Shown here piece by piece: positions 1,995 to 64,000 of a DNA stretch of 64,000 nt. The notes beneath the pieces were generated by a model. The model was given only the letters and a program-made list of their open reading frames with translations, had not been told where the DNA came from and made no database searches. Position numbers and translations under genes: made by a program. Position 1 is the stretch's first letter. Each line of letters begins with the position of its first letter. The stretch comes from a virus: IMG/VR virus record IMGVR_UViG_3300008261_000018, positions 21,175 to 85,174 of that record; one strand, 5' to 3'.

Positions 1995-2651
1995 TCAGGC
2001 AGCCACTGGCCCCCGCTTTTCAAACGCTTGTCGCACTGCATCAGACGCATAGCCGGTCACCAGGGCAAAACCCTCGACCATCTCGTCGTCATAGATGCCC
2101 TCGGTGGCCAACAGGTTCAGGGCCGACAGCGTCAGACCCAAGCGTTCGCGGATCGCATCGCTCACGCCCGCCTGCTTCAGAGCCACGATCGGCCAGGTGT
2201 ACGGCGCTGATGCGGCAGGTGCATTCTCGTCGCCGGCCATCTTGAGAGCCGCTTCGTGCATGGACTTCATCAGGGCAGGCAGGTCCTGCTGCCCGGCGCT
2301 GCTGCGAATCCAGCTCTCGACGTCTGAGAGGGACACACCGGTCAGATACTCGCCGGTCTCGTAGTACGCCACCAACGCGTCGAGGGTCACGCCCAGCTCC
2401 TTGGCCAGGTGCCGCTGGATACCCAGTCCAACTTTGAACGGCGGCACCACCTGCTTGAGGTATTTCGTCATGGTGCCGATCGTTATACCGATCCGCTCAC
2501 TCAGCTCCCGCTGGGAATAGTTGTTGAGCGTCAGAGCTTGCAGCAGCGCTCGCTTGAAGCGCTCTGTATGCAGCTGGTCTTCCTGACCCCTGAGAACGGA
2601 TGCACTGTCCATAATCGATTCACGGTCTTTGGCTTGCAGTGCGGCAACCAT
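1995..2651 (-). CDS. XRE/CI-like helix-turn-helix repressor
   Basis: YSQRELSERIGITIGTMTKYLK HTH and LAKELGVTLDAL; divergent from the primase; start uncertain (2651 or 2612). Confidence 0.75.
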   Translation of the reverse strand: MVAALQAKDRESIMDSASVLRGQEDQLHTERFKRALLQALTLNNYSQRELSERIGITIGTMTKYLKQVVPPFKVGLGIQRHLAKELGVTLDALVAYYETGEYLTGVSLSDVESWIRSSAGQQDLPALMKSMHEAALKMAGDENAPAASAPYTWPIVALKQAGVSDAIRERLGLTLSALNLLATEGIYDDEMVEGFALVTGYASDAVRQAFEKRGPVAA

Positions 2652-2858
2652 AGGTCGTCGAAATGGCCAAATGGGCAGGCTTTCGATTTGGTCCAGATTC
2701 GTGGACTGCGTCACTGTAAGACCCGTCGGCACTGCAGGCGGCACGTAAGAATCCCTGCACTGCAAGCGCTTTTACGAAATCTTGACGCTGCAGCTTGACG
2801 CCCGTGGCATCATCTGCGTGCGACACGGCGTGCATGGTGCGCGCCAGAATCGCCATTT

Positions 2859-13422: not shown

Positions 13423-14382
13423 CTACGACATCCGCAAAATCGCGCGCACTCGTCTTGATAACTCCTGCTCCTTGCCGCGTGGAACTTGTGCCGCAGGGAC
13501 ATCAAACGCTTGTCCGCTGTAGTGGTAGGAGTTTGGCGAGTGCCCGCCCACTGCATTCACTCCCTTGAGCTCGGTTGTCTTAATGCCGGCTTGGTTCAGT
13601 AATGACGCAGCGGCCCTGGCTTCTTCCGGCGTGGAGAAGGCCAGGTGCTCGTGGTAGTTCTCCCCGCCGTGGTCGTCTCGATATCCAGCATGGGAGCGAT
13701 CACCTGTCAGATATTCGATGGGCTTGAACCCGCCTGCTGATGTGGCGGGTGTCATTGCATCGAGGCCGCCTGTCTCGACGATCTGCTTGGTCTCCTGCGG
13801 CGTCTCCGGATTCAGTGACGCGATTGCAACCGCCAACGGGCTCTGCGCTGCCATGCGCTGGCCGCTGGAGGTTCGTGCCACCGGTCGGTACTGGTCTCCG
13901 CCAATCAGCGCGAGTGCTGTTGCTGCCACCGGATCCATCGTTTGCTGTGGCGCTGCAGTGCTGGCCACCGGCTGAACGGATGGAAGGCCCCCGATCTCAA
14001 GTCCACCACCGCCAGACAGGCTCGGCATCGGATCTTTGCTGGCCGCGCCGGCGGTTGTCCAGGCATTGATGCCGGAGCTCTTGAGGATCCTGGCTGCGGC
14101 CTGGGCGTTCTTCCAGGGATCCTTGAGATCGTCGTACGAGCGAACACCAATATCAGCAAATTGCCTCAGTCGCTCTTGCCCTAGTTGATAGCCGGGCTGA
14201 TCAATCATGTTGATCTGCCACAAGCCATAACTGTTGTCACCGGTTGCCCGGTTTGGGTTGTGCGCCAACGGGTTTAGACCTGACTCCCGTTTGGCGATAT
14301 TCACCATCAAGGGAACTTTGTCCTCGGGGACCCCAGCGCGCCGCAGAAGCTCAGCTACTTGGCCTTCCGAAAGCGCCGCCAT
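13423..14382 (-). CDS. lytic transglycosylase-like domain plus C-terminal M15-like peptidase domain (probable virion-associated lysin)
   Basis: IAKRESGLNP.AHN…SYGLWQINM…DP..NA.AA; C-terminal GHSPNSYHYSGQAFDV. Confidence 0.8.
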   Translation of the reverse strand: MAALSEGQVAELLRRAGVPEDKVPLMVNIAKRESGLNPLAHNPNRATGDNSYGLWQINMIDQPGYQLGQERLRQFADIGVRSYDDLKDPWKNAQAAARILKSSGINAWTTAGAASKDPMPSLSGGGGLEIGGLPSVQPVASTAAPQQTMDPVAATALALIGGDQYRPVARTSSGQRMAAQSPLAVAIASLNPETPQETKQIVETGGLDAMTPATSAGGFKPIEYLTGDRSHAGYRDDHGGENYHEHLAFSTPEEARAAASLLNQAGIKTTELKGVNAVGGHSPNSYHYSGQAFDVPAAQVPRGKEQELSRRVRAILRMS

Positions 14383-14723
14383 CAGTCTTCAGATTCCAGG
14401 ACAATTGCGTCCATGTCCAGCTCCATTGTGGCATTTTCCCATAGGCCACGCATATAATCTTCTGCTTCTTCGTCACTCGGGACGTAGCCAAAAATCTCAG
14501 CGAAGTCTTCCTCAGTCTCAGGCGCAAACAGCGTCGCCCCCTCGTCCATCCTGAAGATGTAACCAGCTGATCGCGTCGTCGACAGAAAGATCTGCTTCTG
14601 CCGAAATCGCGCCTCCCAGCAATCGAGTAGCGCAGCTTTCAATTCCTCCCTTGAGAGGTCGCTGATCTCGAGTTCGATGCGACGCAGTAGGTACTGCTGT
14701 TCGTGCGTCAGGTTCTCGTCCAT
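14382..14723 (-). CDS. nblA: NblA-like phycobilisome degradation protein with acidic C-terminal extension
   Basis: LTHEQQYLLRRIELEISDLSREELKAALLDCWEARFRQKQIF matches the NblA pattern L(S/T)xEQQF…MS.EQ….L; strong GGAGGA RBS. Confidence 0.65.
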   Translation of the reverse strand: MDENLTHEQQYLLRRIELEISDLSREELKAALLDCWEARFRQKQIFLSTTRSAGYIFRMDEGATLFAPETEEDFAEIFGYVPSDEEAEDYMRGLWENATMELDMDAIVLESED

Positions 14724-36737: not shown

Positions 36738-37186
36738 CACTACTGCCCCGGAGGGCTGCGAGGCTCTTTATCCTCGCACTTGCTCTTTGTCATCGAGCAA
36801 GGTCAGACTATATCTTCACCATCCTTGAACATCTGAAGACCCCCTTGAACGCGTTGTCGCGCGAAGCGCTTGAGCTGAGCGCTTACGCCTGGAACGCAAG
36901 TACAGGGTCTTCTTCAGTTGACAAGGTGCAGGTGCGGGGCACTCGTGGGTCCTTTACCGAGTTTCCTCTCGGGACCTAGTCGTTGAACCTGCCGGCTTGT
37001 TGGCCGGATTGGCTGCTGATTACCCATGCAGCGACAGGATTTTTAAGCTTTCACGATTGCCCTTCCGGGCTGCGTTGTAGCTCCTGAGCTTTTTCCGACC
37101 GCTGGCTTGGTCGGGAAGGGCTTCCAGCAATTCACCCCGTGTTGCCCTAGACGTTTCCGACTAGGCGACCACAAGCCTTTGGGCCG
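36738..37186 (-). ncRNA. group I self-splicing intron (449 nt, no ORF)
   Basis: 5' exon ends in U and intron ends in G; P (AATTGCTGGAA), Q (AATCAGCAGCC), R (TCAACGACTA) and S (AAGATATAGTCT) elements in order; P1 UGACU/GGUCG and P10 GCUUGU/AUAGGC pairings. Confidence 0.93.
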
Positions 37187-37604
37187 AGTCATCCAGCAAT
37201 GTCAGGCTTCCAATCGACTGATGGAAGACGTTCAGGTTGCCGGTATCCAGCAGCAGGCGCTGGGCGGTCAGCAGGGTCTCACGAGCCACCTTGAAGGTGG
37301 ACGGAGCGGTGGGATCAAGGGGATCAGCGGGACCGGTGTACTCCTTGAGCGTCACCAGGACCTTGTCCTTGACGATATTGCGGCTAGATGCAGTGCCCAG
37401 CGTTTGATCGGCAGTGCGCTCGCGGGAATCCTTGTTGCCAGGATTGCCCCAGAAGCGGTAACGATCGAGCTGAACAGTCTGGCCCGGCTGCTTGGCGAAG
37501 TCATGCACGACGACGGGCTCAACCGCCATCTCGATGATGTAGCCAGGGTGGGGCCGATAAAGCTCTGCGCCTAGCAGCTTGGGAAAGTCATTATCGATCC
37601 ACAT
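37187..37604 (-). CDS. major capsid protein, exon 1
   Basis: MWIDNDFPKLLGAELYRP…DFAKQPGQTVQLDRY…; AGGAG RBS. Confidence 0.9.
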
Positions 37605-37694
37605 GGGTCGACAGGCTCCTCAGCTGGTAGAAGAAACAGCACGCAGAACGCGCGCTTGCTCTTACTATAAAGTCGATTTGTAGGGTGAAAAAAT

Positions 37695-38408
37695 TTGGAC
37701 GCGGCGGATGTCCGAGGCCTCCTGGGCCTACTCCTCCCTGACGGCAGCCTTGTCCCATATCGCAGTCCAGCAGGGGGTTACATCCAGCTGACGCTGACTG
37801 CTGGGGTTTCTGAGTCCGCATTTCTCGAGGACAAGGTCGCCGAATTTCGGCAATTCATCTCGACTTCGGCCGAAATTATTCCCTACAAGACGCGCCCCCG
37901 CGCCAACGGCAAGACGACCGAGGTGCTGCGCTTTCGGGTCTCGACCAACAAGCTGCGCCCTGTTTACAACCTTCTCTACCCGGGCGGCGAACGGCAAATC
38001 ACTCAGAACGCTCTGGATCTCCTGGGCGCCAAGGCTGCCGCGTGGTGCTGGGCCGAAGGAGCTCGGCTGAACCGTGATGGATCTTCGTGCCTAGCCCGCG
38101 TCGGTAACTCCGTCGATGAAGGACACATGGTGTCGTCGTGGATTGAAGTCCTCACCGGCGCACGCTCCGAGATCGAGGGAGAACTGATCAAGCCAAGGCT
38201 TCGTTTTGATGCCGAACAGACCCGCAAGATCCGGGAGTCCTTGGCTCCCTACGCACCGCCCAGTCGTCAACACCTTTTCACCGGAGAGCAGTGGGATGTC
38301 CACTCAATTCGTAGCGCGCGTACTGAGCTACAGCATCGGCAAGGGGAAAATTGCTCTCAAGGGGAGCCGCAAGAGGCCCTGGCTGGAACTCAAGCGACCC
38401 GAGACTGA
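37695..38408 (+). CDS. free-standing LAGLIDADG_2-like homing endonuclease
   Basis: GLLGLLLPDGSL (motif 1), LYP.G..QIT…LDLLG..AAAWCWAEG (motif 2). Confidence 0.75.
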   Translation: MDAADVRGLLGLLLPDGSLVPYRSPAGGYIQLTLTAGVSESAFLEDKVAEFRQFISTSAEIIPYKTRPRANGKTTEVLRFRVSTNKLRPVYNLLYPGGERQITQNALDLLGAKAAAWCWAEGARLNRDGSSCLARVGNSVDEGHMVSSWIEVLTGARSEIEGELIKPRLRFDAEQTRKIRESLAPYAPPSRQHLFTGEQWDVHSIRSARTELQHRQGENCSQGEPQEALAGTQATRD

Positions 38409-38874
38409 GCGCGCGTATCTCGGTTCCCAGGTCTACCAGCTACGCAAACTCCATCCCGGGGAGCTCGAGATCTTCTGGGACCGAGTGCCAACCGAGGGTT
38501 TCTACGACCTCGATCGAGCCAGGATTCAAAGCGATGAACTCTGGCGCGCCTACGAGCTCCTCTACCCCCGCGACAAATTCACGCTGTCACCGACCGTGCT
38601 CGAGCTCACGGGGCTCCAGGGCGCTTGCGCGCTCTGGCTTGATCACGGCTCCTGGTATGGCCGAGCAGGGGAGATCACAGGGGGCTACAGCCCTCACGAG
38701 AAGAAGCTCATCGGTGAGTGGTTGACCTCTTTGGGTTTCGAGGCCGCGAACAAGCGCGTTGACAGCCGATGCCGCCTTTGCATCTCCCCTGATTCGATGC
38801 GCAAATTCATCCCGGCGATCCGCCCGCTCGTACACGCATCGATGCGTAGCAAGCTTCAACGTAAAAGGACCTAG
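38296..38874 (+). CDS. second LAGLIDADG_2-like protein, degenerate
   Basis: VLSYSIGKGKI (motif 1, D>K), YELLYP…LELTGLQGACALWLDHGS (motif 2), IRPLVH.SMR.KL. Confidence 0.7.
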   Translation: MSTQFVARVLSYSIGKGKIALKGSRKRPWLELKRPETERAYLGSQVYQLRKLHPGELEIFWDRVPTEGFYDLDRARIQSDELWRAYELLYPRDKFTLSPTVLELTGLQGACALWLDHGSWYGRAGEITGGYSPHEKKLIGEWLTSLGFEAANKRVDSRCRLCISPDSMRKFIPAIRPLVHASMRSKLQRKRT

Positions 38875-44131: not shown

Positions 44132-45121
44132 TCAGGCTTCCGAGATCAGCAGCTTGCTGCGCAGCGCCTCAGGGGAGGCCTGGCTCAGCATCTGCCACGC
44201 AGCGGCGGGATTGCGCTCGCTAATGGCGGAGAACATGCCCCAGAAATCATCACCCTCGCTGGCCTGAACGCCAGGGGCGGGGATGTCCATCTGAGGGCGC
44301 TGGAACACAGGAGCGCTGCTGTAGCGAGCCTCGTTTGCGTACACCTCGGCGGCCAAACGATCCTCTGCCGTCTCGGTCGGATAGGGACCTTCGGGGCCGA
44401 AGAACTCGTTGACGTACTCGGCCAACAGATCAGGATCGGTCAGCATGGTGTGGTACGCCGCATTGTCTTCTGCGGCGGAGTTGATCACCAGCTTTGCGGC
44501 TTCCAGCGATTCAGCCAGCTGCTCAACCTGCTGCATCACCTGGGCAGTTTGAGTTGCCTGGGCGAGCAGAGCATCCTCTACGACGCAGGCGTAGCGGTTC
44601 AGAAGCGCAGGGGCCTCAAGACCAAAGTGCTCGAGAACCTCAAGACTTTCGTTGCTGACGCTTTCGAGATACCCGTCGCTCGCGCTCGCCGTTGCGGCGT
44701 TGTTCCAAGTCGGCGCCTGTTGATACGTCGCCTGGGAATAAGCCTGCGTTTGAGGGAGCGGCGAAATCGGCGTCCCCGAAACGGAAGGTGCTGCCTGGTA
44801 GCTGGCTGCTTGCTGCCAATAGGCTTCCGGGGAGGGAGCCGCCTGTTGGATCGGCGCCGAGTAAGGCACCTGCGATTGGGAGTTCCGCGTCGCGCTCAGG
44901 CTTTCGCTCAGCCGGTTGAACGCCTCCTGCCAGGGATTGGCCTGCGCCGCCGGAGCCTGCTGGTAAGCCGGTTCCGCTTGTGGCGCCGTAGCTGTCGGGT
45001 ACGAAGCTGGGGCGCTCTGGGCCGGCGCTGGCTGGTAAGCCACGGTCGACGCGGGTACGCTCGACGTCATCGAGGGCTGCGGGGTCACCGGAGCCTGTGT
45101 CATCACTGTACTGTCCTGCAT
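44132..45121 (-). CDS. putative capsid scaffolding protein
   Basis: Pro/Gln/Ala-rich disordered N-terminal half and helical acidic C-terminal half; follows the portal. Confidence 0.7.
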   Translation of the reverse strand: MQDSTVMTQAPVTPQPSMTSSVPASTVAYQPAPAQSAPASYPTATAPQAEPAYQQAPAAQANPWQEAFNRLSESLSATRNSQSQVPYSAPIQQAAPSPEAYWQQAASYQAAPSVSGTPISPLPQTQAYSQATYQQAPTWNNAATASASDGYLESVSNESLEVLEHFGLEAPALLNRYACVVEDALLAQATQTAQVMQQVEQLAESLEAAKLVINSAAEDNAAYHTMLTDPDLLAEYVNEFFGPEGPYPTETAEDRLAAEVYANEARYSSAPVFQRPQMDIPAPGVQASEGDDFWGMFSAISERNPAAAWQMLSQASPEALRSKLLISEA

Positions 45122-46856
45122 AGGTCAGCTCACGTTTCAAGAAGTCCAGGGCTCGGTAGACGTAGGGCGTCAAATCGAGCTGAGGGTCCGCAAGCAGCGG
45201 TAGGTCAGGAGCTTGCGGGTGGGGTGTCTGTCGCATCGTTTGAATGAGCGACAGGAATGTGCCAATGCTTTGTTGCGTGGCTTGCGCCATCCGGAATGGA
45301 TAGCCACTGAGCATTGCGCTGCGCTCTTCATCCGTTTTGTCGGGGAAGAGATACCTGAGGGCCTCGATGCTGTTGACACCGAGTTCCTGCAGGTTGCGCA
45401 CAACAATGCTTGCATTCAGTATATCTTCTGCGGAATCCTCGAAGACTGGCCCCTGCCAACGCCACTCGATGCGTCGATCTCCGTCGGGGATCAAACCAAC
45501 TACACCTGGTGGCAGTTGCCGAGCTTGGACCGCCTCAGCGATACTCGCTTCCAGCTTCTGTTTGTATTCCGCAAGGGTTGCTTCGTAGGCCTGCATAGCC
45601 ACACCGAAGTCTTCACGATTCTGGAATTCCTCCCGAATTGGAGCCTGGGGCTTTTCTATGCCCATAGCCGCTGAGAACGAATCACGGAAGATCTGCTCTT
45701 CGTGATAGATAATCAGGGCCAGCAGCTTGCACAAGCCGTAAGTCAGAAGGCCACGGCAGCGGCGCTTGGCTGTCGTAGCAGCTCGCCCGTAGAGAGATTT
45801 GATCTCATAGGCGGTTGCCCCGGTCGAAACACCGAGCTCGTCAACACCGCCAAGAGCTGTGCGAATCTCCTCGCGGTACTGGCGTGCATACAGATTCTGG
45901 TCACCAGAGACGGCATCGGGCGTGACGTAGAGCAGGCGATCAGTCGGCTCGACATTGGCGATGATGCGCGGCACTTTCAGCCCGCCGCCACCGCCACCGC
46001 CGTACGGCTGGCTGACTCGAGTGGATGGACGGTTGCCGGCATAGAAGCCGCCCTGGGAGCTAATTGTCGGGCGGGTCATTTCTTCGTCGCCCGATTCGAC
46101 CAGGTCCTGCTTGGGACGGCTGGAAACGAGCGTCGGGTTTCCGAAGAAGTGGATATTCGTGCGGATGTTCTTGACCAGATCATCGTGCGTCACGATCTGA
46201 TCAGCCAACCAGTCAAACTCACCCGTGGCATCCATGCCCGTTGAGCGCATCGTGTTGAATGCCTCAACCGCCGGAATAAAGCCCAAGCTGTTGATCAGCG
46301 TCCGGGTTTGCCCGGCCGACAGCATGCCTGCGCTGAATGCGGAATCAAACGACGGCTTTTCCGTACTGATCGTTTCTTTGATTTCGTCTCGCTTAATCCG
46401 CAGCTTGACGTAGCGGGTTGAACCACCATCGGCACCTGGCATTGACAGCACACCAAGTCCGTCCCGCACGGTGAACGAGTAGATCAGCTCGACTTCCTCG
46501 AGTTGACCGCTCGCGTCGTAATACGCCCTGTAGTTCTCCTTGCTGAACCACATCAGCCGATAGGTATCCCTGATCGGCCTGAAATAAAACAATCCCTTGC
46601 CGTCGATCAGAAAATCATCGACGATCCCCTCGAGTCGACAGTCGATTTCGTTCTCGACGATCAGCTGATCGAGGAACTTCTTGCGAAAACCAAACGTGTC
46701 CTGAGACGGGTAGAACTCGACACCTTGACGCAGCATGAACATCTTCATCTGCGAGAGATGACTGTTCACGATCATCGTGTCGGTACCACTCGTACCGTCA
46801 CGCTTGCGCGCGGCTTCCAGGATCCGACGGAAGCGCTCGTTCGTAGCCTGTCTCAT
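44640..46856 (-). CDS. portal protein
   Basis: Directly after terL; size and helical composition fit; overlaps the scaffold gene by 482 nt. Confidence 0.75.
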   Translation of the reverse strand: MRQATNERFRRILEAARKRDGTSGTDTMIVNSHLSQMKMFMLRQGVEFYPSQDTFGFRKKFLDQLIVENEIDCRLEGIVDDFLIDGKGLFYFRPIRDTYRLMWFSKENYRAYYDASGQLEEVELIYSFTVRDGLGVLSMPGADGGSTRYVKLRIKRDEIKETISTEKPSFDSAFSAGMLSAGQTRTLINSLGFIPAVEAFNTMRSTGMDATGEFDWLADQIVTHDDLVKNIRTNIHFFGNPTLVSSRPKQDLVESGDEEMTRPTISSQGGFYAGNRPSTRVSQPYGGGGGGGLKVPRIIANVEPTDRLLYVTPDAVSGDQNLYARQYREEIRTALGGVDELGVSTGATAYEIKSLYGRAATTAKRRCRGLLTYGLCKLLALIIYHEEQIFRDSFSAAMGIEKPQAPIREEFQNREDFGVAMQAYEATLAEYKQKLEASIAEAVQARQLPPGVVGLIPDGDRRIEWRWQGPVFEDSAEDILNASIVVRNLQELGVNSIEALRYLFPDKTDEERSAMLSGYPFRMAQATQQSIGTFLSLIQTMRQTPHPQAPDLPLLADPQLDLTPYVYRALDFLKRELTYAGQYSDDTGSGDPAALDDVERTRVDRGLPASAGPERPSFVPDSYGATSGTGLPAGSGGAGQSLAGGVQPAERKPERDAELPIAGALLGADPTGGSLPGSLLAASSQLPGSTFRFGDADFAAPSNAGLFPGDVSTGADLEQRRNGERERRVSRKRQQRKS

Positions 46857-56382: not shown

Positions 56383-59255
56383 CGGCCCATGACGCCCAGT
56401 AAGCGGCGCCGTGTCATTGCCGCACCTTTGTTAATCGGCTCTGACGGGTATTGGCCAGGTGCAACAGCATTCAGGTTGGAGTCCGGCGCTGCTTTGCTGC
56501 GCTGAGCGATCCTGTTGGCCAACAGTGCCATCGCCCGCTCTTGCGACTCACTGCCCACCTCGCTGCCAAGGGCGTTTGCCATGTCGTTGAACGTAGCGCC
56601 AGCAGGGATTCCGGGCACGGGAGCGGTGCCCTCCGGCGACGGCCGGTATGCCATGCGCAAACGATCAGCTGCTACTGGATCAACGCCGCGAGTTCCAACC
56701 TGTACGACATCCATGGCCGGCGCCGCGTACGCGTCAATCTGAGGCAGGAGGTCCAAATTGCTTGCGCGGCGTGGCACGTACATCGCGCGCATCGGGTCAC
56801 CGCTGGCCTCGTCGGCCAGGACGCGCTGAACGATGAATGCGGCTTGGTCACGATCACCGCCGGTGTAGCGCGTGGCGTACTCCACGTATGACTCCATGGG
56901 GTCCGCGGGTCGCTCCGGCTCCGCCAGAACCTGCTGATAGCCGCTGCGCTTGCGAAGGGTTTCAGCGCGATCCAGGTGGTCCTGGAATTCCGTCTCGTCC
57001 ATGCCGCTGGACTGCAGCATCTCGATTAGCTGAGAGGCTTCGTCGGCGTCAAACGTCCGTGGCGCGTCTTCCACTAGGCCTGCGGTGGCTGGTTCTGGGA
57101 ACAGATCCACGCGACGACCACCACTGATCTCCCGCTTCGCCTGCTCAAGCATCTCTGCGGCGTAGCTGCCGGGGGCAAACAGCGGCCTGCCGGGGTCATT
57201 GGCTGGAACAGTCCGCGTAATCGTCCGGCCGCTCTCTCCAGGCAGCGGGATTTCCACCGTGGTCATCTCAGCAGCGGCGCGCAGCGTTGTATTGGCGTCC
57301 ACCTGGAAGCGCGCACCAAACTGCGCGGCTGCATCAAGCGCTTCAGCAGGGGTCAGCGGGCGCGGCGCCTCCTGCAAGAAGGCCCGCAACTGCTTGCCAG
57401 CCGCAACCGCGCGGCTATCAGGCGCGTTGAGGTCGCCACTGCGGCGAGGATTGATGTTCGAGTACAGGCTCTCGACAGTTCCCCGCATGGGGGTCTGCAC
57501 GCCGTACACCTCGGAGCCCTTGGCGACGGGCATTTCCCCGGAAAGCGCTGCTTCGGCGAGGATGTCGCGCAGGGCATTGCGATTTTCGGGCGGAATCTCC
57601 GCCGACAGGTTGCCTAATGCGCGGAAAAACTCTGTCTGGTCTACCTCTCCGTACTTTTTCTCCATTGTTCGCCGAATTCCGGCGTCATCGACCAGAGGAG
57701 CAAGCGTGATATCGCCGCGAACCCCCTTGCGCCGCCGCGAACTCACACCTTCAGAGGCTGTGCGCGCGAATTCACGCGCTTCTGCGTAGTCGCGGTTGAC
57801 CGGAGAGCCCACACGGAAGAGCTTGTCGGTCTCATTGATGACGCCATCGAGCACGTTTCCAGGCTCTGGGACCTGGCGCGTCCCTGACAGCACCTCCGTG
57901 TCGTACACCGGCAGCACTTCTTCGCCGTACTTCACCCCGTCCTTGGTGCGCCGCACGGTCGATTTGGTCAAATATCCAATCAATGAGTCCTTAGATCCTG
58001 TTGCCGCTGCTGCAACCTGACGGGCCGTGTACTCAGCCTTCGATAGTCGCCTGAATCGACCTTCTTGCTCTGCCTGCAGCAGAGCATTACGGCCGATGAC
58101 CGGCGTTTTGTTCTCTTCGTTGATGCGATTGATGACCTCTTTCAGGCGAATTTCTTTCTCTCGCATGAACGAGGCTGTTTTGTCCTCGTCAACGTCGCCC
58201 TCCCGCTCGTATCCAGCAGGCACTCCGACCAGCTGGTTGGGGTCAATGGTCCCAATTGCCCTTTCCCCACCTTTAAGCCACTGACCATCCGGCTGCCGCT
58301 GCGATGCTTCGATCACATAGGGAGGCGAGCCAGCGCCACCTGCGTCTTCGATATAGGTTTTTGCGCCTCGTTTCCTGAAATCTGGCTGCTTCTGGATCGT
58401 CTGAAGGTTCTTGCCAGAACGCTTGGCCTCAAACTCCTCGGGATCCTCTGCTGAATAGCCGGTGACGTCTACATTCCGCCCGGATTCGTCGCGGTCGTAA
58501 CCCTCGACGCGGAGCATGTCCGCCAATTCCACGGCGTAGTCATCCAGGAACGCGCGCTCCTCTTCGCTAGTGCTAGCCCGGCGCATCATCTGCACCGTCA
58601 TGAATGCTTGCTCGCTCTCGCTCAAGGGTTTTTTCGCGCCTTTACTGGCGAGCATCTGCTCGACGCGCTCAGGGGTATCAAGCGCAGCGAAAGAATTGCC
58701 CTCTCTGACCATTGCATCGCGACGCGCAAGCCGCGAATCAGGCCGATACGCCGACCCACTGCGTCGTCCTCTGACACGCGGATCATGTTCCAGGTAGTAG
58801 TTGTCACTCGCAACAGTTCCAGTTGGGAGCTGTTCAAACCCTTGGCGCTGGACTTGAGCTTCGTATGTACCGCTGGCGGGCATCCGCTCGTTGCGCCCAA
58901 CCTCGTACAAGTTGCCGTCTTTGCCTACGTAGGTATCCGGGGCGTCTGCAAGACGAACATTGAGTGAGAGCTGTCCTGAGGGAGAGCCGCTCACTGAGCG
59001 TCCATCGACAAGCATTTCGCTGCTTGGCGGCAGGTTGCGAGCGAGATCGCGTAACACCTGATCGCGCGCTTCAGGCGACGCGGCGGCTTGGCGCGCGAAG
59101 TACCGCTGCACGCGCTCGAGGTCGCCCTGAATACCCGGAACAACAGGAGGCAAGCCAGGGATATTCAGCTGGCTAGGGACTGCGCCCAGACTCCGGCGGG
59201 GGTCATAAGGGTCTTCCCAGCGGAAACTGCCAATTCCGCCAATCCCGAGCGCCAT
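56379..59255 (-). CDS. large hypothetical protein (958 aa), first gene of the late operon
   Basis: Long uninterrupted ORF; no motif recognised. Confidence 0.85.
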   Translation of the reverse strand: MALGIGGIGSFRWEDPYDPRRSLGAVPSQLNIPGLPPVVPGIQGDLERVQRYFARQAAASPEARDQVLRDLARNLPPSSEMLVDGRSVSGSPSGQLSLNVRLADAPDTYVGKDGNLYEVGRNERMPASGTYEAQVQRQGFEQLPTGTVASDNYYLEHDPRVRGRRSGSAYRPDSRLARRDAMVREGNSFAALDTPERVEQMLASKGAKKPLSESEQAFMTVQMMRRASTSEEERAFLDDYAVELADMLRVEGYDRDESGRNVDVTGYSAEDPEEFEAKRSGKNLQTIQKQPDFRKRGAKTYIEDAGGAGSPPYVIEASQRQPDGQWLKGGERAIGTIDPNQLVGVPAGYEREGDVDEDKTASFMREKEIRLKEVINRINEENKTPVIGRNALLQAEQEGRFRRLSKAEYTARQVAAAATGSKDSLIGYLTKSTVRRTKDGVKYGEEVLPVYDTEVLSGTRQVPEPGNVLDGVINETDKLFRVGSPVNRDYAEAREFARTASEGVSSRRRKGVRGDITLAPLVDDAGIRRTMEKKYGEVDQTEFFRALGNLSAEIPPENRNALRDILAEAALSGEMPVAKGSEVYGVQTPMRGTVESLYSNINPRRSGDLNAPDSRAVAAGKQLRAFLQEAPRPLTPAEALDAAAQFGARFQVDANTTLRAAAEMTTVEIPLPGESGRTITRTVPANDPGRPLFAPGSYAAEMLEQAKREISGGRRVDLFPEPATAGLVEDAPRTFDADEASQLIEMLQSSGMDETEFQDHLDRAETLRKRSGYQQVLAEPERPADPMESYVEYATRYTGGDRDQAAFIVQRVLADEASGDPMRAMYVPRRASNLDLLPQIDAYAAPAMDVVQVGTRGVDPVAADRLRMAYRPSPEGTAPVPGIPAGATFNDMANALGSEVGSESQERAMALLANRIAQRSKAAPDSNLNAVAPGQYPSEPINKGAAMTRRRLLGVMGR

Positions 59256-60150
59256 TGAACGCCACGCCGCGCACTGTGTACGACGAGTCTAAAGAATCTC
59301 ACTTTTTGACCCTGCGCCTCGCGTGGATAAACGCGTCGCGATTTTTCAGGAAATTATTGCTCAGCTCTATTTATTTCTGGGCCTAAAAACACCCTCCTCC
59401 GTAGGGCGAAAAAATTGGCCCATTTCGCCATGGGAAAAATCGTTTCACCCTACAGAGCGCGCCTCGCGGGACCCCTGTTGATTTTTGCTGCGGCGCGCGG
59501 TTTACATCAAACACCCCCCGCAAGTTGCGGGAGTCGCCCAACAAAAAAAAGACTGCGCCACGCCCCTGCTTCGTTCGCGGCCAACGCTGTAGCCCCGCGC
59601 CCGCGTGCGCGCTACGCGCGCTTATCGCGTTCGCTGCGTTGCGTTTGTAGCGAGAGAAGCCTGCTTCGTTTGTGAGCAAGCGAGCGAGCGAGCGTTACTT
59701 GTGGATAGCAGATGAGCAGCAGCTGAGCGCACGGAAGCTGCGTGAGCAACAGATGTATACAAGTGCGCGCACACACGAGAGCAGGCGACGCGTTCACGCG
59801 TTGCGTCAGCGTTTCCACACGCAACCACCAGTACCCCGCGCACGCGCTCGGGCGCAATCCGCGCTCCACCGCACCCCCGCGCCTTCGCGACTAGGGGGGC
59901 CTCATCCACTGCGGGTGGGTGTTTTTCTCCCTATGGGAATCATTCTCAACGGTGAATCTCTTGTGCGCTACGCGCACTGATTCGCTGTTCTCTTCGCCCA
60001 TGCGCTCGCTGCGCTCGCTTTGTGCTCCATCTCTCCACGCCTCAATACCCCGGAGCCACCCTCGCCATCCATTCCATTTGTCTCAGCTGAGTCTCATCGC
60101 GTCACGGGACACGACGCCCCGCCGCGCGCGCCGCGATCAGGGGCTCTGCT
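59256..60150. other. non-coding strand-switch region; candidate genome end/packaging site
   Basis: No credible ORF; A/T tracts followed by CGCG/GCGA-rich low-complexity sequence; genes diverge on both sides. Confidence 0.5.
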
Positions 60151-60175
60151 TGTGTCCCTCCGCAGCAGTGCATTC

Positions 60176-60373
60176 ATGCTTGCTCAACTCCGCTCGCTCA
60201 TCCCCGTCACCACCACCGAGGAATACGACTACCTCGAGTGGCTCTACATCGAAGCCACCCGGCTAGGCGATCACCTCGATCTCGCTGCCGAGCTCTTCAG
60301 CTACAGGCAGGGCATCCTCGAGCACGCGATCAATTGCCAAGAGACCTACGACTCTGGCGAGTGCCCCTTCTGA
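60176..60373 (+). CDS. cassette 1: hypothetical protein (65 aa)
   Basis: MLAQLRSLIP…GECPF*; lies between repeats. Confidence 0.75.
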   Translation: MLAQLRSLIPVTTTEEYDYLEWLYIEATRLGDHLDLAAELFSYRQGILEHAINCQETYDSGECPF

Positions 60374-60454
60374 CACCATCCCCCGCTTGGCTCAGCCAGG
60401 TGGGGGATTTTTCGTGTCCCTCACCAGCAGTGCATTTCACGCTGCTTGACTCCG

Positions 60455-60652
60455 ATGACCATCACCCTCAACCACAACTGGATCGACGGCGCCGCAGCTT
60501 GCGCGCTCCGCAGATCCATCGAGGTCTACACCTGGCACGGCATCGAGGGCGACTTCGACTACGACCACGAGGTGATCAACCCCGAGGAATACGAGGCCGC
60601 CAATCTCCTGCTCCGCTCCACTCACCTCCCCGAGAGCGATTGCCCCTTCTGA
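60455..60652 (+). CDS. cassette 2: hypothetical protein (65 aa)
   Basis: MTITLNHNW…SDCPF*. Confidence 0.75.
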   Translation: MTITLNHNWIDGAAACALRRSIEVYTWHGIEGDFDYDHEVINPEEYEAANLLLRSTHLPESDCPF

Positions 60653-60717
60653 CACCATCCCCCGCTTGGCTCAGCCAGGTGGGGGATTTTTCGTGTCCCA
60701 ATACAGCAGTGCATTCA

Positions 60718-60903
60718 ATGTCCTTCACGACGCTGATCACTCCCTCCGGCAAATACGAGTACATCGCCAACGGCGACCAAACTCGCATCACCTTCTGGGC
60801 GCTGCGCGGCAACAAGCGCGAGTGGAGCAGATCCACCTCCGTCCCGACCGAGCTCGCTCGTCGGGACTACGAGTCCCGCAAGCAACGCGCGATCTTCGCC
60901 TGA
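60718..60903 (+). CDS. cassette 3: hypothetical protein (61 aa)
   Basis: MSFTTLITPSGKYEY…AIFA*. Confidence 0.75.
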   Translation: MSFTTLITPSGKYEYIANGDQTRITFWALRGNKREWSRSTSVPTELARRDYESRKQRAIFA

Positions 60904-60980
60904 CACCAAGCCCCTGCTCCCTCCGGGAGTGGGGGCTTTTCTATGTCCTTCCTCAGCGGTGCATCTGCACTGCTTTAGCC

Positions 60981-61283
60981 ATGGCACGCGCCATCCTCTT
61001 CGAGGCCAGGTCTATCGAGCAGGCCCTTGAAGCTGCGCACCTTACCGCCGGCGAAGCCTGGTTCTGCGTCAGCGAAGGCGTCCTCTGGATGCACTTCTGC
61101 CTTGACCGCAGCGACCTGGCGAGCTGGCAGGAGGAGACCGGCCTGGGGGAGTGCACCGATGTGCACGACCCCGAGGTCTCCTTCGATGCCGAGAACCCCG
61201 GCAACTGGTGCTCTCTCAGCTACGCCGCCCTCGGCGATCACAACGGCCTGGTCGACCTGCGCTACATCGTCCAAACCACCTGA
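60981..61283 (+). CDS. cassette 4: hypothetical protein (100 aa)
   Basis: MARAILFEARS…YIVQTT*. Confidence 0.75.
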   Translation: MARAILFEARSIEQALEAAHLTAGEAWFCVSEGVLWMHFCLDRSDLASWQEETGLGECTDVHDPEVSFDAENPGNWCSLSYAALGDHNGLVDLRYIVQTT

Positions 61284-61363
61284 CACCGAACCCCCGCTTG
61301 GCTCAGCCAGGTGGGGGTTCTTTCGTGTCCCTCATCAGCAGTGCATTGACGCTGCTTCCTTCG

Positions 61364-61552
61364 ATGCGCGCTCCCATCCTCGCGATCGCTGCCGGCACCG
61401 CCATCGGTTTCACCCTGGTCGGTGCCATGCACGCCGCTGTCGCTCGCCTCGATCAGGCCACCCGCCAGCAGTGCATCCGCCAGGACTGGCCTGTTCACCA
61501 GCACACCGCCCACACCGAGTTCTGCCGGACCTACATGGTCAAGGCCTTCTGA
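61364..61552 (+). CDS. cassette 5: small membrane-anchored protein (62 aa)
   Basis: N-terminal hydrophobic helix, then QC..QDWP.HQH.AH..FC. Confidence 0.75.
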   Translation: MRAPILAIAAGTAIGFTLVGAMHAAVARLDQATRQQCIRQDWPVHQHTAHTEFCRTYMVKAF

Positions 61553-61635
61553 TCCCACTGATCCCCTCATCGGCCCGGCCGGTGGGGGGATTTTTCATGT
61601 CCTCTCTCAGCAGTGCATTCGCGCTGCTTCCTTCG

Positions 61636-61956
61636 ATGGATATCCGCGTCCTTAGCAAGCGCACGCTCAGCGATCCGCTGCCAGGCATTTATAGGGCCTA
61701 CGTCGGTCGGCCGAGCGCTCTCGGGAATCCATTCCCGATGCGCTCTGAGTCCGATCGCGACGACGTCTGCGAGCGCTATCTCGCCTGGCTGCGCGACAAC
61801 TACAGCGCTGGCGGCCCTGCTCGCGCTGAGCTCGAACGGCTCTACGCGATTGCCCTTGAGCAGCCGCTAGAGCTTGTCTGCTTTTGCGCCCCCAAGCGCT
61901 GCCACGCCGACAGCATCAAGCAAGCCCTGCTGGGCATGCATGCTCAACGAGCCTGA
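61636..61956 (+). CDS. cassette 6: DUF4326 domain protein
   Basis: YVGRPS.LGNPF…R..V..Y..WL…L.CFCAPKRCHAD. Confidence 0.88.
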   Translation: MDIRVLSKRTLSDPLPGIYRAYVGRPSALGNPFPMRSESDRDDVCERYLAWLRDNYSAGGPARAELERLYAIALEQPLELVCFCAPKRCHADSIKQALLGMHAQRA

Positions 61957-62031
61957 TCCCCTCACTCGCTTGCCGGGTGGGGGGATTTTTCATGTCCTCT
62001 CTCAGCAGTGCATTTGCGCTGCCTCACTCCG

Positions 62032-62205
62032 GTGACACACTCCGAGCTCTTCGTTGGTATCGAGCCCTCCGATCCAACAGACCCCAACTCGGCTCCGCTC
62101 GCTCGGATCTACGGCTCCAAGGCCGAGGCCGAGCACCACACCCCCTTCGTTCAAACCTTCGCTGACTTCATGGCCAGCGACGACGACACGACCCTGGTCT
62201 TCTGA
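62032..62205 (+). CDS. cassette 7: hypothetical protein (57 aa)
   Basis: GTG start; lies between repeats. Confidence 0.65.
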   Translation: MTHSELFVGIEPSDPTDPNSAPLARIYGSKAEAEHHTPFVQTFADFMASDDDTTLVF

Positions 62206-62286
62206 CCAAGATCCCCTGCCTGGCTCAGCCGGGTGGGGGATTTTTCGTGTCCCTTCTCATCAGTGCCTTTGGCGCTGACTGCTTCG

Positions 62287-62436
62287 ATGGCCCCTCACGA
62301 AATGACCACCGAGGAACTCCACCTCCTCGCCTGGGAACGCGCCGCTGCCTGCCAGCGCAGAGCCGCAGCTGGGCAGGACGACTCCGACGAATTCGAGGAG
62401 CTCCTGCCTTTGCTCAACGAGCTCTGCTGCCGCTGA
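62287..62436 (+). CDS. cassette 8: hypothetical protein (49 aa)
   Basis: MAPHEMTTEELHLLAW…. Confidence 0.7.
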   Translation: MAPHEMTTEELHLLAWERAAACQRRAAAGQDDSDEFEELLPLLNELCCR

Positions 62437-62537
62437 CCCAAGTACTCCCCTCATCGGCACCGCCGGTGGGGGGATTTTTCGTGCACTCACTCAGCAGTGC
62501 ATTGTTCTTTCTCTCCGGGGACGCCCGGATTTCCGCT

Positions 62538-62801
62538 ATGTCGGAAGGACAACTCTCGAGACTGCTTCGTCGCGTCAAGCTCCTCGCTCGCCGTGACGTC
62601 ATCCTCGATCAAACCGGCCACATGATCGGTGGCGCACTGGATCCCTTCTGGCAATTGCTAGAGATCCAGCTCGACACCATCCACGATCAATTCCTGGACG
62701 GTTACGCACCTATCGGCATCGGCCAATTCCTCGCCTACTGCGAGCAGCTGGTTAACGCTGATTGGCACCTCGTTCGAGACCTCGAACGGCAATACGCCTG
62801 A
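62538..62801 (+). CDS. cassette 9: hypothetical protein (87 aa)
   Basis: MSEGQLSRLLRR…RQYA*. Confidence 0.7.
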   Translation: MSEGQLSRLLRRVKLLARRDVILDQTGHMIGGALDPFWQLLEIQLDTIHDQFLDGYAPIGIGQFLAYCEQLVNADWHLVRDLERQYA

Positions 62802-62912
62802 GCCAAGGTTCAGCACCTCATCCCCTCATCCGCTTGCCGGGTGGGGGGATTTTTCGTGCACTCACTCAGCAGTGCATTTACCTTTCTCCCGGTCGCAAGA
62901 CCGGCTGCATCC

Positions 62913-63425
62913 ATGGCTACCGCCATCACCAAGACCGATCTGGAAGCTCGCATCGCCGAGCTCGAGGCCATCCTCGCCACCAGCTCTGCAGCCAATCCGA
63001 ACCAGGTCGTCCTGGTTGGCATGCTCAGAGCTGTCAAGCCGATCGAGTCCAAGAACCCGGAGGCCAAGTTCCAGGTCACCGCGATCCTCACCAACAACGC
63101 TCGTGAGCTGATCAATGGCCAGGAGACCCGGGTCGATCTCCCCGTCGATGGCCTCATCGCCAGCGACAACGGCAATGGCCCACTGGCTACCCAGCTGCTG
63201 GACATTGCTCGCAGCACCCGCTGGGCACGCGTCCGCGTGACCGGCTTCTGGGTCCGCCGGGGCGAGATCGAAATCCGCAACAACTACCTCAACGCCACCG
63301 GCAAGCAGCTGCGCCTCCAGTCCATCTCGGTCCTCAACTCTGAGCCCGCCGATCAGCCCGCGCTCGATGCCCCCATCGCTGCGCCTTTCGCTGACGGCCC
63401 CACCGGCGAAGAGCCCAGCTTCTGA
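62913..63425 (+). CDS. cassette 10: putative single-stranded DNA-binding protein
   Basis: NQVVLVGML…VRVTGF beta pattern, Pro/Ala linker, acidic-aromatic tail GEEPSF. Confidence 0.6.
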   Translation: MATAITKTDLEARIAELEAILATSSAANPNQVVLVGMLRAVKPIESKNPEAKFQVTAILTNNARELINGQETRVDLPVDGLIASDNGNGPLATQLLDIARSTRWARVRVTGFWVRRGEIEIRNNYLNATGKQLRLQSISVLNSEPADQPALDAPIAAPFADGPTGEEPSF

Positions 63426-63446
63426 TCCGTAGCCACCGGGCTACAC

Positions 63447-63480
63447 CGCCCCACTCGGTCCGCCGGGTGGGGCTTTTTTA
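63447..63480 (+). terminator. terminator related to the repeat hairpin but lacking the downstream motif
   Basis: CCCACTCGG-tccg-CCGGGTGGG followed by GCTTTTTT. Confidence 0.75.
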
Positions 63481-63498
63481 TTGACTCGCCAACACAGC

Positions 63499-63836
63499 AT
63501 GCGTCCTGTCTCTTCCATCACACGACGCCTTGGCGAGTACGACCTATCTTTCGCCCATCGCGCCTGCGCTCCACGGATTATCGCCGCCTGGCGCTGTCCG
63601 CCTGGAGCGCTTTTGTCACCGCCTGCGTTTATGTCTTCATCGCAGGCCAACTGACAAGGCGCGCTTACAACTTCCTTGCCCCACACCTCCTCACATTCCT
63701 GCGCGCAGCTGCACTCACCATCGAATCCACTCTCCCCACTGAGGCTGCTCCAACCACTCCTCCAGTACTTCGACATCCACCTCAGCAAACCAAGCCTCAA
63801 TCCACGCGCCGGCGCAAAGCGACCGCGCAATCCTGA
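63499..63836 (+). pseudogene. probable frameshifted membrane protein gene
   Basis: The ATG frame (MRPVSSITRR…) reads poorly after ~20 codons, while another frame encodes RLRSTDYRRLALSAWSAFVTACVYVFIAG…RRRKATAQS* with no start codon. Confidence 0.4.
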
Positions 63837-63935
63837 ATCTCAAGACCTGAAACGACATCGCCCCTGCCAGCACCGCTGGTGGGGGTTTTTTCGTGCACTC
63901 CTTCAGCAGTGCATTTGTCGTTTCTGGTCAATCGC

Positions 63936-64000
63936 ATGACTGAAATCAAAGACGTCCTCGGTGAGCTCTACCCCGAGATCGCCGACTTCCTGGCCGAGCA
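63936..64000 (+). CDS. next cassette ORF, 5' end only
   Basis: MTEIKDVLGELYPEIADFLAE… runs off the window edge. Confidence 0.7.
   Translation, partial: MTEIKDVLGELYPEIADFLAE

Follow-up and report, generated by a model that had tools for sequence, protein, structure and literature searches.

Organization of the gene cassettes

The stretch of 64,000 nucleotides analysed here (the window) is part of the 85-kb genome of an S-EIV1-like cyanophage. Towards one end of this genome, small ORFs are arranged in cassettes of constant order: an intrinsic terminator, a T-run, the box TGnCC-N5-CAGCAGTGCATT and a small ORF. Eleven cassettes are found in the window and 14 in the whole genome, all on the + strand. 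All 14 box copies are intergenic, with a terminator before them (except in window cassette 1) and an ORF after them. The nine exact copies of the motif in the window all lie on the + strand, and 23 matches are found at two or fewer mismatches against 7.2 expected, a number reached by none of 100 shuffles. Terminator-like sites are also enriched in the region (25 against 2.9 expected), and one of them is located 4 to 9 nt upstream of the box in 10 of the 11 window cassettes; nine of these terminators were scored computationally; the remaining one, at about 62211-62241, was read directly off the sequence. No Pfam family was found for eight of the nine cassette proteins scanned.

Cassette 1 is composed of a box (60152-60174) without upstream T-run terminator and of an ORF (60176-60373). 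In cassette 2 (60378-60446), the terminator (60378-60408) and the box (60414-60436) precede the ORF 60455-60652; in cassette 3 (60657-60715), the terminator (60657-60687) and the box (60693-60715) precede the ORF 60718-60903. Cassette 4 (60908-60974) has its terminator at 60908-60938, the box variant CAGCGGTGCATC at 60943-60965 and an ORF at 60981-61283. The same elements are found in cassette 5 (61288-61356; terminator 61288-61320, box 61325-61347, ORF 61364-61552), in cassette 6 (61560-61628; terminator 61560-61592, box 61597-61619), whose ORF (61636-61956) contains a DUF4326 domain, and in cassette 7 (61955-62022; terminator 61955-61987, box 61992-62014), whose ORF (62032-62205) has a GTG start. 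Cassette 8 (62211-62278), which contains the terminator read from the sequence, displays the box variant CATCAGTGCCTT at 62247-62269 and the ORF 62287-62436. The last three are cassette 9 (62446-62503; terminator 62446-62474, box 62481-62503, ORF 62538-62801), cassette 10 (62820-62878; terminator 62820-62850, box 62856-62878, ORF 62913-63425) and cassette 11 (63860-63915; terminator 63860-63886, box 63893-63915), whose ORF begins at 63937 and continues beyond the window.

Between the motif and the start codon lie 1 to about 39 nt, a spread that speaks against a signal positioning the ribosome. As noticed in the preliminary description, the ATG follows the motif immediately in two copies, at 1 nt in cassette 1 (copy 60163) and at 2 nt in cassette 3 (copy 60704).

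Conservation and specificity of the box

A set of 44 non-redundant cassettes was picked by hand and by eye from 66 clusters of seven related phage contigs. Among the bases outside those imposed by the search, T(-10) is conserved in 43, G(-9) in 44, C(-7) in 35 and C(-6) in 42 of the 44 cassettes, and box position 14 is a purine in 38. C1 and A2 are invariant in all 44, a value that is partly imposed by the search. In the relatives G001 to G006, exact and one-mismatch matches to the motif number 51 in the forward orientation (a few being chance matches inside ORFs) and none in the reverse one. The same box is found in G006, although the neighbouring 958-aa protein shares only 34% identity. Every array has a box before its first gene as well, and the approximately 100 nt upstream of this box cannot be aligned among G000, G004, G005 and G006. 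Near-identical relatives differ by whole units: the unit of copy 61608 is missing in G001 and G003, that of copy 62258 in G002 and that of copy 62492 in G001, and a different gene stands first in G001 and G002.

A strict 19-base version of the unit recovered 14 single matches, one per contig, from 185,579 bacterial and archaeal species genomes; none of the 14 is cassette-like, and none has an upstream terminator hairpin or T-run. No Rfam family reached its gathering threshold; the only matches, of the terminators to NsiR1, score 21 to 25 bits where 39 are required.

The box had been considered unlikely to be a conventional -10 element, and this is borne out. No sigma-70-like site was found in the region 59200-64000, and the TGnCC sequence is separated from the only -10-like hexamer (TGCATT) by 11 nt and not by 16 to 18 nt. 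Moreover, the ORF of copy 60704 has a single possible start codon, 2 nt downstream of the box, so that transcription cannot start beyond box position 15; a host sigma-70 start 7 nt after TGCATT would miss this codon. A sigma-54 (-24/-12) promoter has a GG and a GC doublet at a distance of ten bases. G(-9) and G3C4 are suitably spaced, but G(-9) is preceded by T in 43 of the 44 cassettes and in none by G, and this candidate was rejected. Cyanobacteria are not known to have sigma-54.

A phage RNA polymerase or sigma factor that could read the box was looked for, as the preliminary description had proposed, and none was found. A search with PF00940, run without positive control, gave no match in G000, G001, G004 to G006 and S-EIV1. 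Sigma region 2 gave no match either, sigma region 4 matched only the CI-like repressor (14.9 bits), and patterns of polymerase catalytic motifs did not match any phage protein. The longest ORF encodes 958 aa and its structure model is uninformative (mean pLDDT of 50.5). The phage encodes a single-stranded DNA-binding protein (SSB), a serine recombinase (Resolvase domain, E-value 1.9e-25) and a helix-turn-helix CI-like repressor (window positions 1995-2765); from this gene content, it looks temperate.

Hairpins overlapping the box

In most cassettes, the box is included in a second hairpin, distinct from the terminator. The 44 cassettes were divided by eye into 26 with a downstream arm, seven with an upstream arm, eight with flanking arms that enclose the box and three without hairpin; in these three, the ATG lies 1-2 nt after the box. 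The class with flanking arms had been overlooked in the preliminary description.

All the downstream pairings described earlier in the window are present: AGCAGTG with CGCTGCT in cassette 2 (60426-60432 with 60440-60446; z-score of -1.66) and in cassette 5 (61337-61343 with 61350-61356; -1.24), AGCGGTGCA with TGCACTGCT in cassette 4 (60955-60963 with 60966-60974; -1.63), AGCAGTGC with GCGCTGCT in cassette 6 (61609-61616 with 61621-61628; -3.89), GCAGTGC with GCGCTGC in cassette 7 (62005-62011 with 62016-62022; -2.81) and TCAGTGCC with GGCGCTGA in cassette 8 (62260-62267 with 62271-62278; -1.61). Two compensatory changes had been claimed for this last copy (62258). One of them, G3:C to U:A, is real, whereas A10 to C creates an additional pair and restores none. 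An exchange of the pairing partner had also been proposed for copies 62492, 62867 and 63904. These indeed lack the downstream arm and have the upstream pairing GTGCACT...AGTGCAT, in cassette 9 (62481-62487 with 62496-62502; z-score of -1.74), cassette 10 (62856-62862 with 62871-62877; -2.82) and cassette 11 (63893-63899 with 63908-63914; +0.13), although the upstream class is statistically weak, with 98.2% of 56 cells paired but a value equalled by 51 of 500 shuffles and a mean z-score of -1.35. Cassettes 1 and 3 have no hairpin (+0.49 and +0.68). Taken singly, the copies fold with modest strength: as RNA, three of the 11 window copies have a z-score below -2, five lie between -1.2 and -1.8 and three (60163, 60704 and 63904) show no excess. 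The evidence for the hairpins therefore comes mainly from the set of 44.

Compared with shuffled flanks, the 26 downstream-arm cassettes have a mean z-score of -2.64, the eight flanking-arm ones of -3.02 and the three hairpin-free ones of +0.11; the upstream mean given above comes from seven. In the downstream class, 89.9% of 208 cells are paired and two pairs are changed on both sides; none of 500 shuffles is as high. The covariation expected in a wider alignment was recovered there by RNAalifold, as the same 6-bp core as in the pairing count. The central U7-G wobble is present in 25 of the 26 copies and the stem starts at A2 in 11, whereas an outer stem is not supported (p = 0.31). The flanking class is well supported: cognate arms fold at -13.1 kcal/mol against -7.6 kcal/mol for non-cognate ones (p = 0.0002), and compensatory and G-U changes keep the pairing, as in the downstream class. 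The stems of the flanking and upstream classes start 9 to 11 bases before C1. The centres of the three registers are about 14 nt apart, with loops of 2 to 14 nt, and no base of the motif is always paired or always free across the three classes. No single consensus structure is common to all copies; covariation backs two alternative helices, downstream and flanking. The downstream- and upstream-class forms constitute inverted repeats. Folding energies are of -12 to -18 kcal/mol as RNA versus -3 to -8 kcal/mol as single-stranded DNA. A role of back-up terminator does not fit the downstream class because no U-tract follows these hairpins.

The idea of a structured element thus stands in part: most cassettes have a hairpin on the sense strand that shows compensatory and G-U changes, but the structure does not define the element, being absent from three of 44 and shifting in register. 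The constant element of the cassette is the box and not the hairpin, and the second hairpins are real but optional, accessory features with a shifting partner.

RNA contigs at the boxes

Eleven assembled contigs from four lake metatranscriptome runs, all of low depth, were placed on the region. Four of them have their low ends at box positions 1, 14, 15 and 17 (P of about 0.001 under random placement), in cassettes 7 (62003), 11 (63917), 4 (60968) and 2 (60441). These ends adjoin the box whatever the hairpin class, and the one at position 1 falls exactly on C1 of copy 62003 and not after the box. Low-depth assembled contigs can neither map a start nor give the strand, and the libraries may contain DNA. 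None of the 11 contigs crosses a terminator-box junction, but assemblies may break there for no other reason than the repeats and the GC-rich hairpins.

Interpretation of the cassettes

Cassettes named PeSL (promoter-early stem-loop) have been described in T4-type phages, where a terminator stem-loop followed by an early promoter is repeated around small genes; their promoters fit the host sigma-70 consensus (Arbiol et al. 2010, PMC2839356; Comeau et al. 2014, PMC4122927). The present cassettes share with them the composite intergenic unit with a terminator stem-loop directly before the putative start signal (in 10 of the 11 window cassettes), the many repeats around small genes of no assigned function and the differences between relatives by whole unit-bounded cassettes (G000 to G003). 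They differ by a box that is not sigma-70-like, by the cyanobacterial host and the S-EIV1-like rather than T4-like phage, and by a second, register-shifting hairpin overlapping the start signal. The best reading is that they represent a variant of known phage promoter-terminator cassettes, the box being probably read by a factor other than the sigma-70 type of PeSL elements.

We tentatively favour, with confidence a little short of even, a box acting as a phage-specific start signal in PeSL-like cassettes of terminator and promoter, the hairpins being accessory features of the sense strand. Each small gene at this genome end would be an insulated cassette in which the 22-base box, the lineage's own promoter core, would fix where the message begins, probably 1 to 5 bases past the box in most cases. 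The two genes with an immediate ATG would then have almost no leader. The box is not a host sigma-70 promoter; it may be read by the polymerase of the host together with a factor from the phage, or else by a phage enzyme that went unrecognised. Covariation rich in G-U pairs implies a folding sense strand that includes the box itself, and the hairpin would most likely form in read-through RNA arriving from upstream, or in RNA initiated before the box. Messages starting past the box, together with a folded box, need such read-through RNA or a second start, which counts against this reading, as do the contig end at box position 1 and the searches that found no polymerase or sigma factor able to read the box. 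The hairpin may be an insulating or stabilising stem over the start signal, using whatever arm is at hand; a stem that only needs to sit there would explain the change of partner. The repeat of terminator and box also constitutes a seam for the gain and loss of whole cassettes, as in PeSL elements.

The roles suggested in the preliminary description (processing site, 5'-protective hairpin or translation signal) are possible but unproven. Stabilising stem-loops occur at the 5' end of bacterial and phage messages, and the downstream-class stem would lie at or one base from such an end if the message started at C1/A2. The box would then be the conserved first 12 bases of the message, the promoter would be formed by the T-run, TGnCC and the spacer, and the hairpin would protect from 5'-end-dependent decay. 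We consider this unlikely. It accounts for the invariance of C1/A2, for the contig beginning at C1 of copy 62003, for the 11 downstream-class stems that start at A2 and hence leave no unpaired 5' base, and for the G-U pairs and stronger folding as RNA. However, most contig ends lie after the box, three of the four being at positions 14 to 17, and the flanking- and upstream-arm stems, which begin before C1, could not form. In addition, TGnCC would occupy the place of the -10 hexamer yet is nothing like one, and the conservation of the leader where no partner exists would be left unexplained.

It is rather improbable that the box is instead cut in a sequence-specific manner by an endoribonuclease of the host or the phage in a long read-through RNA, the terminator-like hairpin protecting the new 3' end and the alternative hairpins hiding the box so as to tune cleavage. 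Masking by interchangeable partners would explain most simply why there are three registers and why the box stays open in the three cassettes without hairpin, and the clustering of contig ends beside the box whatever the hairpin class and the sense-strand wobble pairs suit it too. Against it, about 11 strong intrinsic terminators in series leave little read-through without antitermination, of which no sign was found; a box stands before the first gene of each array too, although there is nothing to cut off at that place and no conserved promoter upstream; and no contig runs from a gene through the terminator to the next box, which is weak evidence.

Mycobacteriophage L5 contains repeated repressor sites called stoperators. 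A box that is, or overlaps, an asymmetric CI-like repressor site of this kind in one orientation, through which a single protein would shut down the 14 early units together in a lysogen, would be compatible with a promoter role and with a temperate phage, the intergenic copies of constant orientation and the inverted repeats. It is nevertheless very improbable: compensatory changes in two arms and variable flanking arms are unexpected for protein half-sites, the near-constant T-G asymmetry of the arms is unlike a symmetric dimer site, and nothing links the repressor to the box.

The promoters of the N4 virion RNA polymerase are conserved sequences in small hairpins before early genes, with variable but complementary stems, and the conserved sequence upstream of early genes described here resembles them in this respect. 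Synechococcus phage S-EIV1 (KJ410740), of the same lineage (portal 51% identical), has its own six-copy intergenic motif in one orientation, 36 to 40 nt before early ORFs. This motif begins with (N)GTCC, to be compared with the TGnCC of the present box, and contains a 4-bp stem with covariation, the closing pair occurring in all four Watson-Crick forms; it differs by its sequence, its AT-richer genome (46% GC), its single fixed register and the lack of a visible adjoining terminator. Recognition of a single-stranded DNA hairpin by an unrecognised phage polymerase or factor, or, as a variant, an integron attC-like structure-specific recombination site moving cassettes, is very unlikely: the stems that vary with complementarity kept, the S-EIV1 motif, the SSB and the cassettes that come and go are in its favour, but the N4 analogy fails on the lack of a giant virion polymerase gene (the longest ORF being of 958 aa), on the variable position and loop size of the hairpin, on the three hairpin-free cassettes, on the sense-strand wobble and on the weak DNA folding, and a crossover in G002 lies at the start codon and not at the box. 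No integron-type tyrosine integrase was noticed among the phage genes.

Returning to the phage-specific start signal, a wider interpretation, which we regard as rather improbable, is that cyanophages of the S-EIV1 lineage may use an undescribed mode of transcription start, in which a factor or polymerase that escaped recognition, either encoded by the phage or delivered by the virion, would read a phage-specific box embedded in a hairpin of the sense strand. The GC-rich branch, to which the present phage belongs, and S-EIV1 would then have differing versions of one and the same combination of hairpin and box. Early transcription of cyanophages is poorly known outside the T4-like and T7-like phages, and the element described here is sharply bounded, testable and present in a widespread freshwater lineage. 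It resembles neither sigma-70 nor sigma-54 promoters, has no cassette-like bacterial copy in its strict version, belongs to a phage in which neither a polymerase nor a sigma gene could be recognised and marks the seams along which early genes are shuffled. Its hairpins illustrate that a constant sequence can recruit differing pairing partners, which warns against taking the hairpin of one copy as the functional structure. If the box is a promoter, it would give a handle on the factor that reads it and a compact insulated expression unit for picocyanobacteria.

Repeated box and anatomy of the cassettes

The 12-mer CAGCAGTGCATT is found nine times exactly in the window, every time on the plus strand, and 23 times when up to two mismatches are allowed (7.2 matches expected; none of 100 shuffles reaches 23). 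Eleven window copies, the nine exact ones and the variants at 60954 and 62258, have a common context, and three further cassette copies are localized beyond the window at genome positions 4025, 10209 and 14751. All cassette copies display the same order: intrinsic terminator, T-run, TGnCC, five bases, motif and ORF. The 22-base unit TGnCC-N5-motif is referred to here as the box (positions are counted from the first C of the motif, upstream bases being negative) and the cassettes are named by the position of their motif. A motif copy at 61466, included in an ORF and devoid of this context, was set aside. The pairings listed in the preliminary description were all found in the sequence, and the ORFs whose ATG lies only 1 nt (60163) and 2 nt (60704) past the motif were both confirmed. 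The element at 63448-63510 may represent a decayed cassette: its terminator (63448-63473) is followed by TTTTTTATTGAC with no recognisable box, and it precedes a doubtful 51-aa ORF (63499-63654).

Several cassettes have features of their own. In cassettes 9 and 10, the leader contains an extra small GC hairpin between box and ATG (CCGGGGACGCCCGG at 62514-62527 and CCGGTCGCAAGACCGG at 62888-62905, respectively). In cassettes 1 and 2, both ORFs finish with the same ...CPF codons, and the two units share an identical stretch across the stop codon and the terminator (60345-60408 and 60624-60687). A Pfam family was assigned to only one of the nine cassette proteins scanned, the product of the cassette 6 gene (61636-61956; DUF4326, E 6.7e-16). 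Upstream of the array, an ORF-poor stretch of ~900 nt separates the first cassette from the gene of a 958-aa protein. It includes a block at ~59466-59545, conserved in the phage under study (G000) and in the relatives G004, G005 and G006, which is composed of a T-run, a GC-rich stretch, ACATCAAACACCC, a hairpin and an A-run. Read on the minus strand, this block is a hairpin followed by a possible host-type promoter directed toward the structural genes.

Conservation of the box in related phages

Relatives were obtained by a pattern scan of IMG/VR and by protein-anchored searches with the 958-aa neighbour protein. Three are near-identical phages (G001-G003) and three are more distant (G004-G006; the 958-aa homologue of G006 is 34% identical), while a metagenome scan added one useful short locus. 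The same box was present on one strand in every relative found, the short locus included. From 95 distinct 132-nt instances, grouped into 66 clusters at 90% identity, 44 cassettes were chosen by eye on the basis of TG at -10/-9 and of either an upstream T-run or a first-cassette context. Left out of all counts were the other 22 clusters, 21 of which lacked this TG or this upstream context (in-ORF or chance matches) and one of which is an oddly spaced copy (cluster 22, L025 position 2418, where a terminator is followed by a box with two mismatches), as well as the box-less terminator 63448-63473. In the 44 cassettes a strong conservation extends beyond the search pattern, with T-10 in 43, G-9 in 44, C-7 in 35 and C-6 in 42 sequences. 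A purine occupies position 14 in 38 of them, and A is never found at position 13.

The hairpins formed with the box

Folding of the 44 cassettes revealed three hairpin arrangements. In class A (26 cassettes), a downstream arm pairs with box positions 2 to 9, and 89.9% of the 208 cells of the tool alignment are paired, a value attained by none of 500 shuffles. Both partners are substituted in two pairs, G3:C becoming U:A (62258 type) and A5:U becoming C:G (one G004 cassette), five more changes preserve a wobble or a standard pair, and five of the eight pairs contain no unpaired cell across the 26 sequences. RNAalifold independently recovered the same 6-bp core. Of the two compensatory changes proposed for copy 62258 in the preliminary description, G3:C to U:A is borne out, while the other creates an additional pair. 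The wobble U7-G is present in 25 of the 26 copies, and the wobble pairs fall on the sense strand. An outer stem between TGnCC and the start-codon region, hinted at by single folds of class A, was rejected, cognate arms being no better than non-cognate ones (p = 0.31).

Class C, overlooked in the preliminary description, is composed of eight cassettes in which flanking arms enclose the box. One family of three homologous cassettes shows substitutions of both partners in four of its seven pairs, with 95% of cells paired; a family of four shows them in two pairs, with 93% of cells paired. The fit is far better with cognate than with non-cognate arms (p = 0.0002). Class B (seven cassettes, among them 62492, 62867 and 63904) corresponds to the proposed swap to an upstream arm. 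The GTGCAC-type arm is indeed present and pairs with positions 5 to 11, with 98% of cells paired and an alternation of A5:U and G5:C, but this pairing is equalled by 51 of 500 shuffles and the mean z is only -1.35, as compared with -2.64 in class A and -3.02 in class C. The three hairpin-free cassettes (z +0.11) are those whose ORF starts directly after the box. Every box position is paired in some cassettes and free in others, and the hairpin centre shifts by ~14 nt between classes. The original observation is real and extends to further cassettes; the box is the constant feature and the hairpin is facultative.

Comparison with known promoters and search for a reading factor

A search of 59200-64000 for sigma-70-like sites was negative, and a conventional sigma-70 promoter was rejected on this ground. 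No -10-like hexamer was seen downstream of TGnCC when all spacings were checked by eye. Moreover, the 60704 ORF has a single start codon, so any start site must be at box position 15 or earlier, and TGCATT cannot then be an ordinary -10 hexamer. The earlier view that the motif is not a conventional -10 box is consequently upheld. The TG of the box is never GG in the 44 cassettes, and the box is thus not a -24/-12 promoter. No Rfam family matches it. A strict 19-base version of the unit occurs 14 times in 185,579 species genomes, each time singly and without cassette context, so that a host-type promoter or prophage copies of the box were rejected. Each array has a box ahead of its first gene, and the sequence immediately upstream of that box is not conserved among four phages.

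A phage RNA polymerase or sigma factor, envisaged in the preliminary description for the rest of the genome, was not detected by any of the searches. Profiles PF00940, PF04542 and PF08281 gave nothing in the genome beyond one HTH match of 14.9 bits, PF00940 recovered no polymerase in five related records including Synechococcus phage S-EIV1 (KJ410740), no polymerase or sigma factor emerged when the larger ORFs were scanned against Pfam and PHROG, and catalytic motif patterns of polymerases had no match. Two candidate proteins were considered, and their structure models were uninformative. The 958-aa protein, which matched no family of Pfam or PHROG, gave no usable result in the Atlas and had an AlphaFold pLDDT of 50.5, was dropped. 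The second, an early protein of 563-585 aa that carries a PcfJ-like domain at its C-terminus (27.8 bits in G000 as well as in S-EIV1), is encoded directly downstream of the repeated motif of its lineage in both phages (286-1977 in G000; 36999-38756 in KJ410740). The 563-aa protein matched no PDB sequence, nor any structure by Foldseek at E <= 0.001 (model pLDDT 71), and showed no sign of being a polymerase; a literature search on the name PcfJ returned only worm plasmid names.

RNA contigs and interpretation of the box

Four lake-water metatranscriptome runs contain small parts of the region, and their contigs were mapped onto it. No terminator-box junction is spanned by any of the 11 contigs. 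The low ends of four contigs fall at box positions 1, 14, 15 and 17 (P ~0.001 for at least four such ends by random placement). We take this pattern as weak hints only on the message start: depth is ~3, starts and strand are not resolvable, the libraries may contain DNA, and repeats and hairpins are able to break assemblies. The shares of 0.06 to 0.12 of sampled words, and the uncovered bins, are evidence neither of habitat nor of silence.

Position, orientation, conservation, phage specificity and contig ends together point to the box as a putative phage-specific start signal. The preliminary interpretation, a structured RNA element or a single-stranded DNA hairpin promoter, is partly supported. 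There is a tension, since the sense-strand wobble covariation places the box in a folding strand, most simply RNA, whereas three of the four contig ends imply a message start after the box. The stems would act in RNA running through the box, owing either to read-through of the terminator or to a minor start farther upstream, which would reconcile the covariation with these ends. That the box is instead transcribed as a 5' leader whose stem is protective, as the same covariation could suggest, is unlikely in view of these ends. A cleavage site masked by interchangeable partners appears still less probable. The stems are far stronger as RNA than as DNA, and a DNA structure serving recognition or recombination is given very little credence; equally improbable is a repressor site.

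Identity of the phage and relation to other systems

The window covers bases 21175-85174 of an IMG/VR virus record that is 85,174 bp long and whose ends overlap by 114 bp, so the record is effectively circular. A search of 50,697 phage records with the portal-like protein (44640-46856, minus strand) gave a single match, a protein of Synechococcus phage S-EIV1 (listed as S-EIVl), with 51% identity across 81% of the portal-like protein. A NblA-like ORF (14382-14723, minus strand) scores 21.1 bits with Pfam NblA, under the cut-off of 25, and lends weak support to a cyanobacterial host. Few genes are preceded by Shine-Dalgarno sequences. Judging from these three sequence traits, the phage is a cyanophage. 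HIP1, considered as a host clue, is represented by five copies, with no enrichment. The gene set includes a serine recombinase, a CI-like HTH protein, a VapE-type primase, an SSB and a 2OG-Fe(II) oxygenase, and a group I intron is found at 36779-37181 on the minus strand (Rfam RF00028, 60.3 bits for a gathering score of 50, E 1.1e-12).

The closest known kind of arrangement is the PeSL of T4-type phages, in which a stem-loop terminator is joined to an early promoter; PeSLs border small ORFans and bring about modular shuffling (PMC2839356, PMC4122927). As with PeSLs, near-identical relatives of this phage differ by entire cassettes: G001 and G003 lack the 61608 unit (cassette 6), G001 also lacks the 62492 unit and G002 the 62258 unit, the first gene of the array is replaced in G001 and G002, and in G002 a chimeric leader is fused at the start codon. 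The start signal of these cassettes differs from that of PeSLs in not being host-like. By this analogy, the box would be part of composite terminator-promoter cassettes in which its promoter role is predicted.

The cassette box is absent from S-EIV1. This phage has its own motif, present in six copies of one orientation upstream of early ORFs (positions 43013, 39529, 38810, 33603, 30514 and 25920 of KJ410740, minus strand). It starts with (N)GTCC and includes a 4-bp stem, closed by T-A, G-C, C-G or A-T depending on the copy, after which comes TTAAA(C/G)T. Its 3' half may resemble the core of T3/SP6-type promoters; the PF00940 search found no polymerase of this type in S-EIV1. As the S-EIV1 motif also bears a hairpin, a bolder reading is kept in play, in which hairpin-plus-box start signals would be a trait of the whole S-EIV1 lineage.
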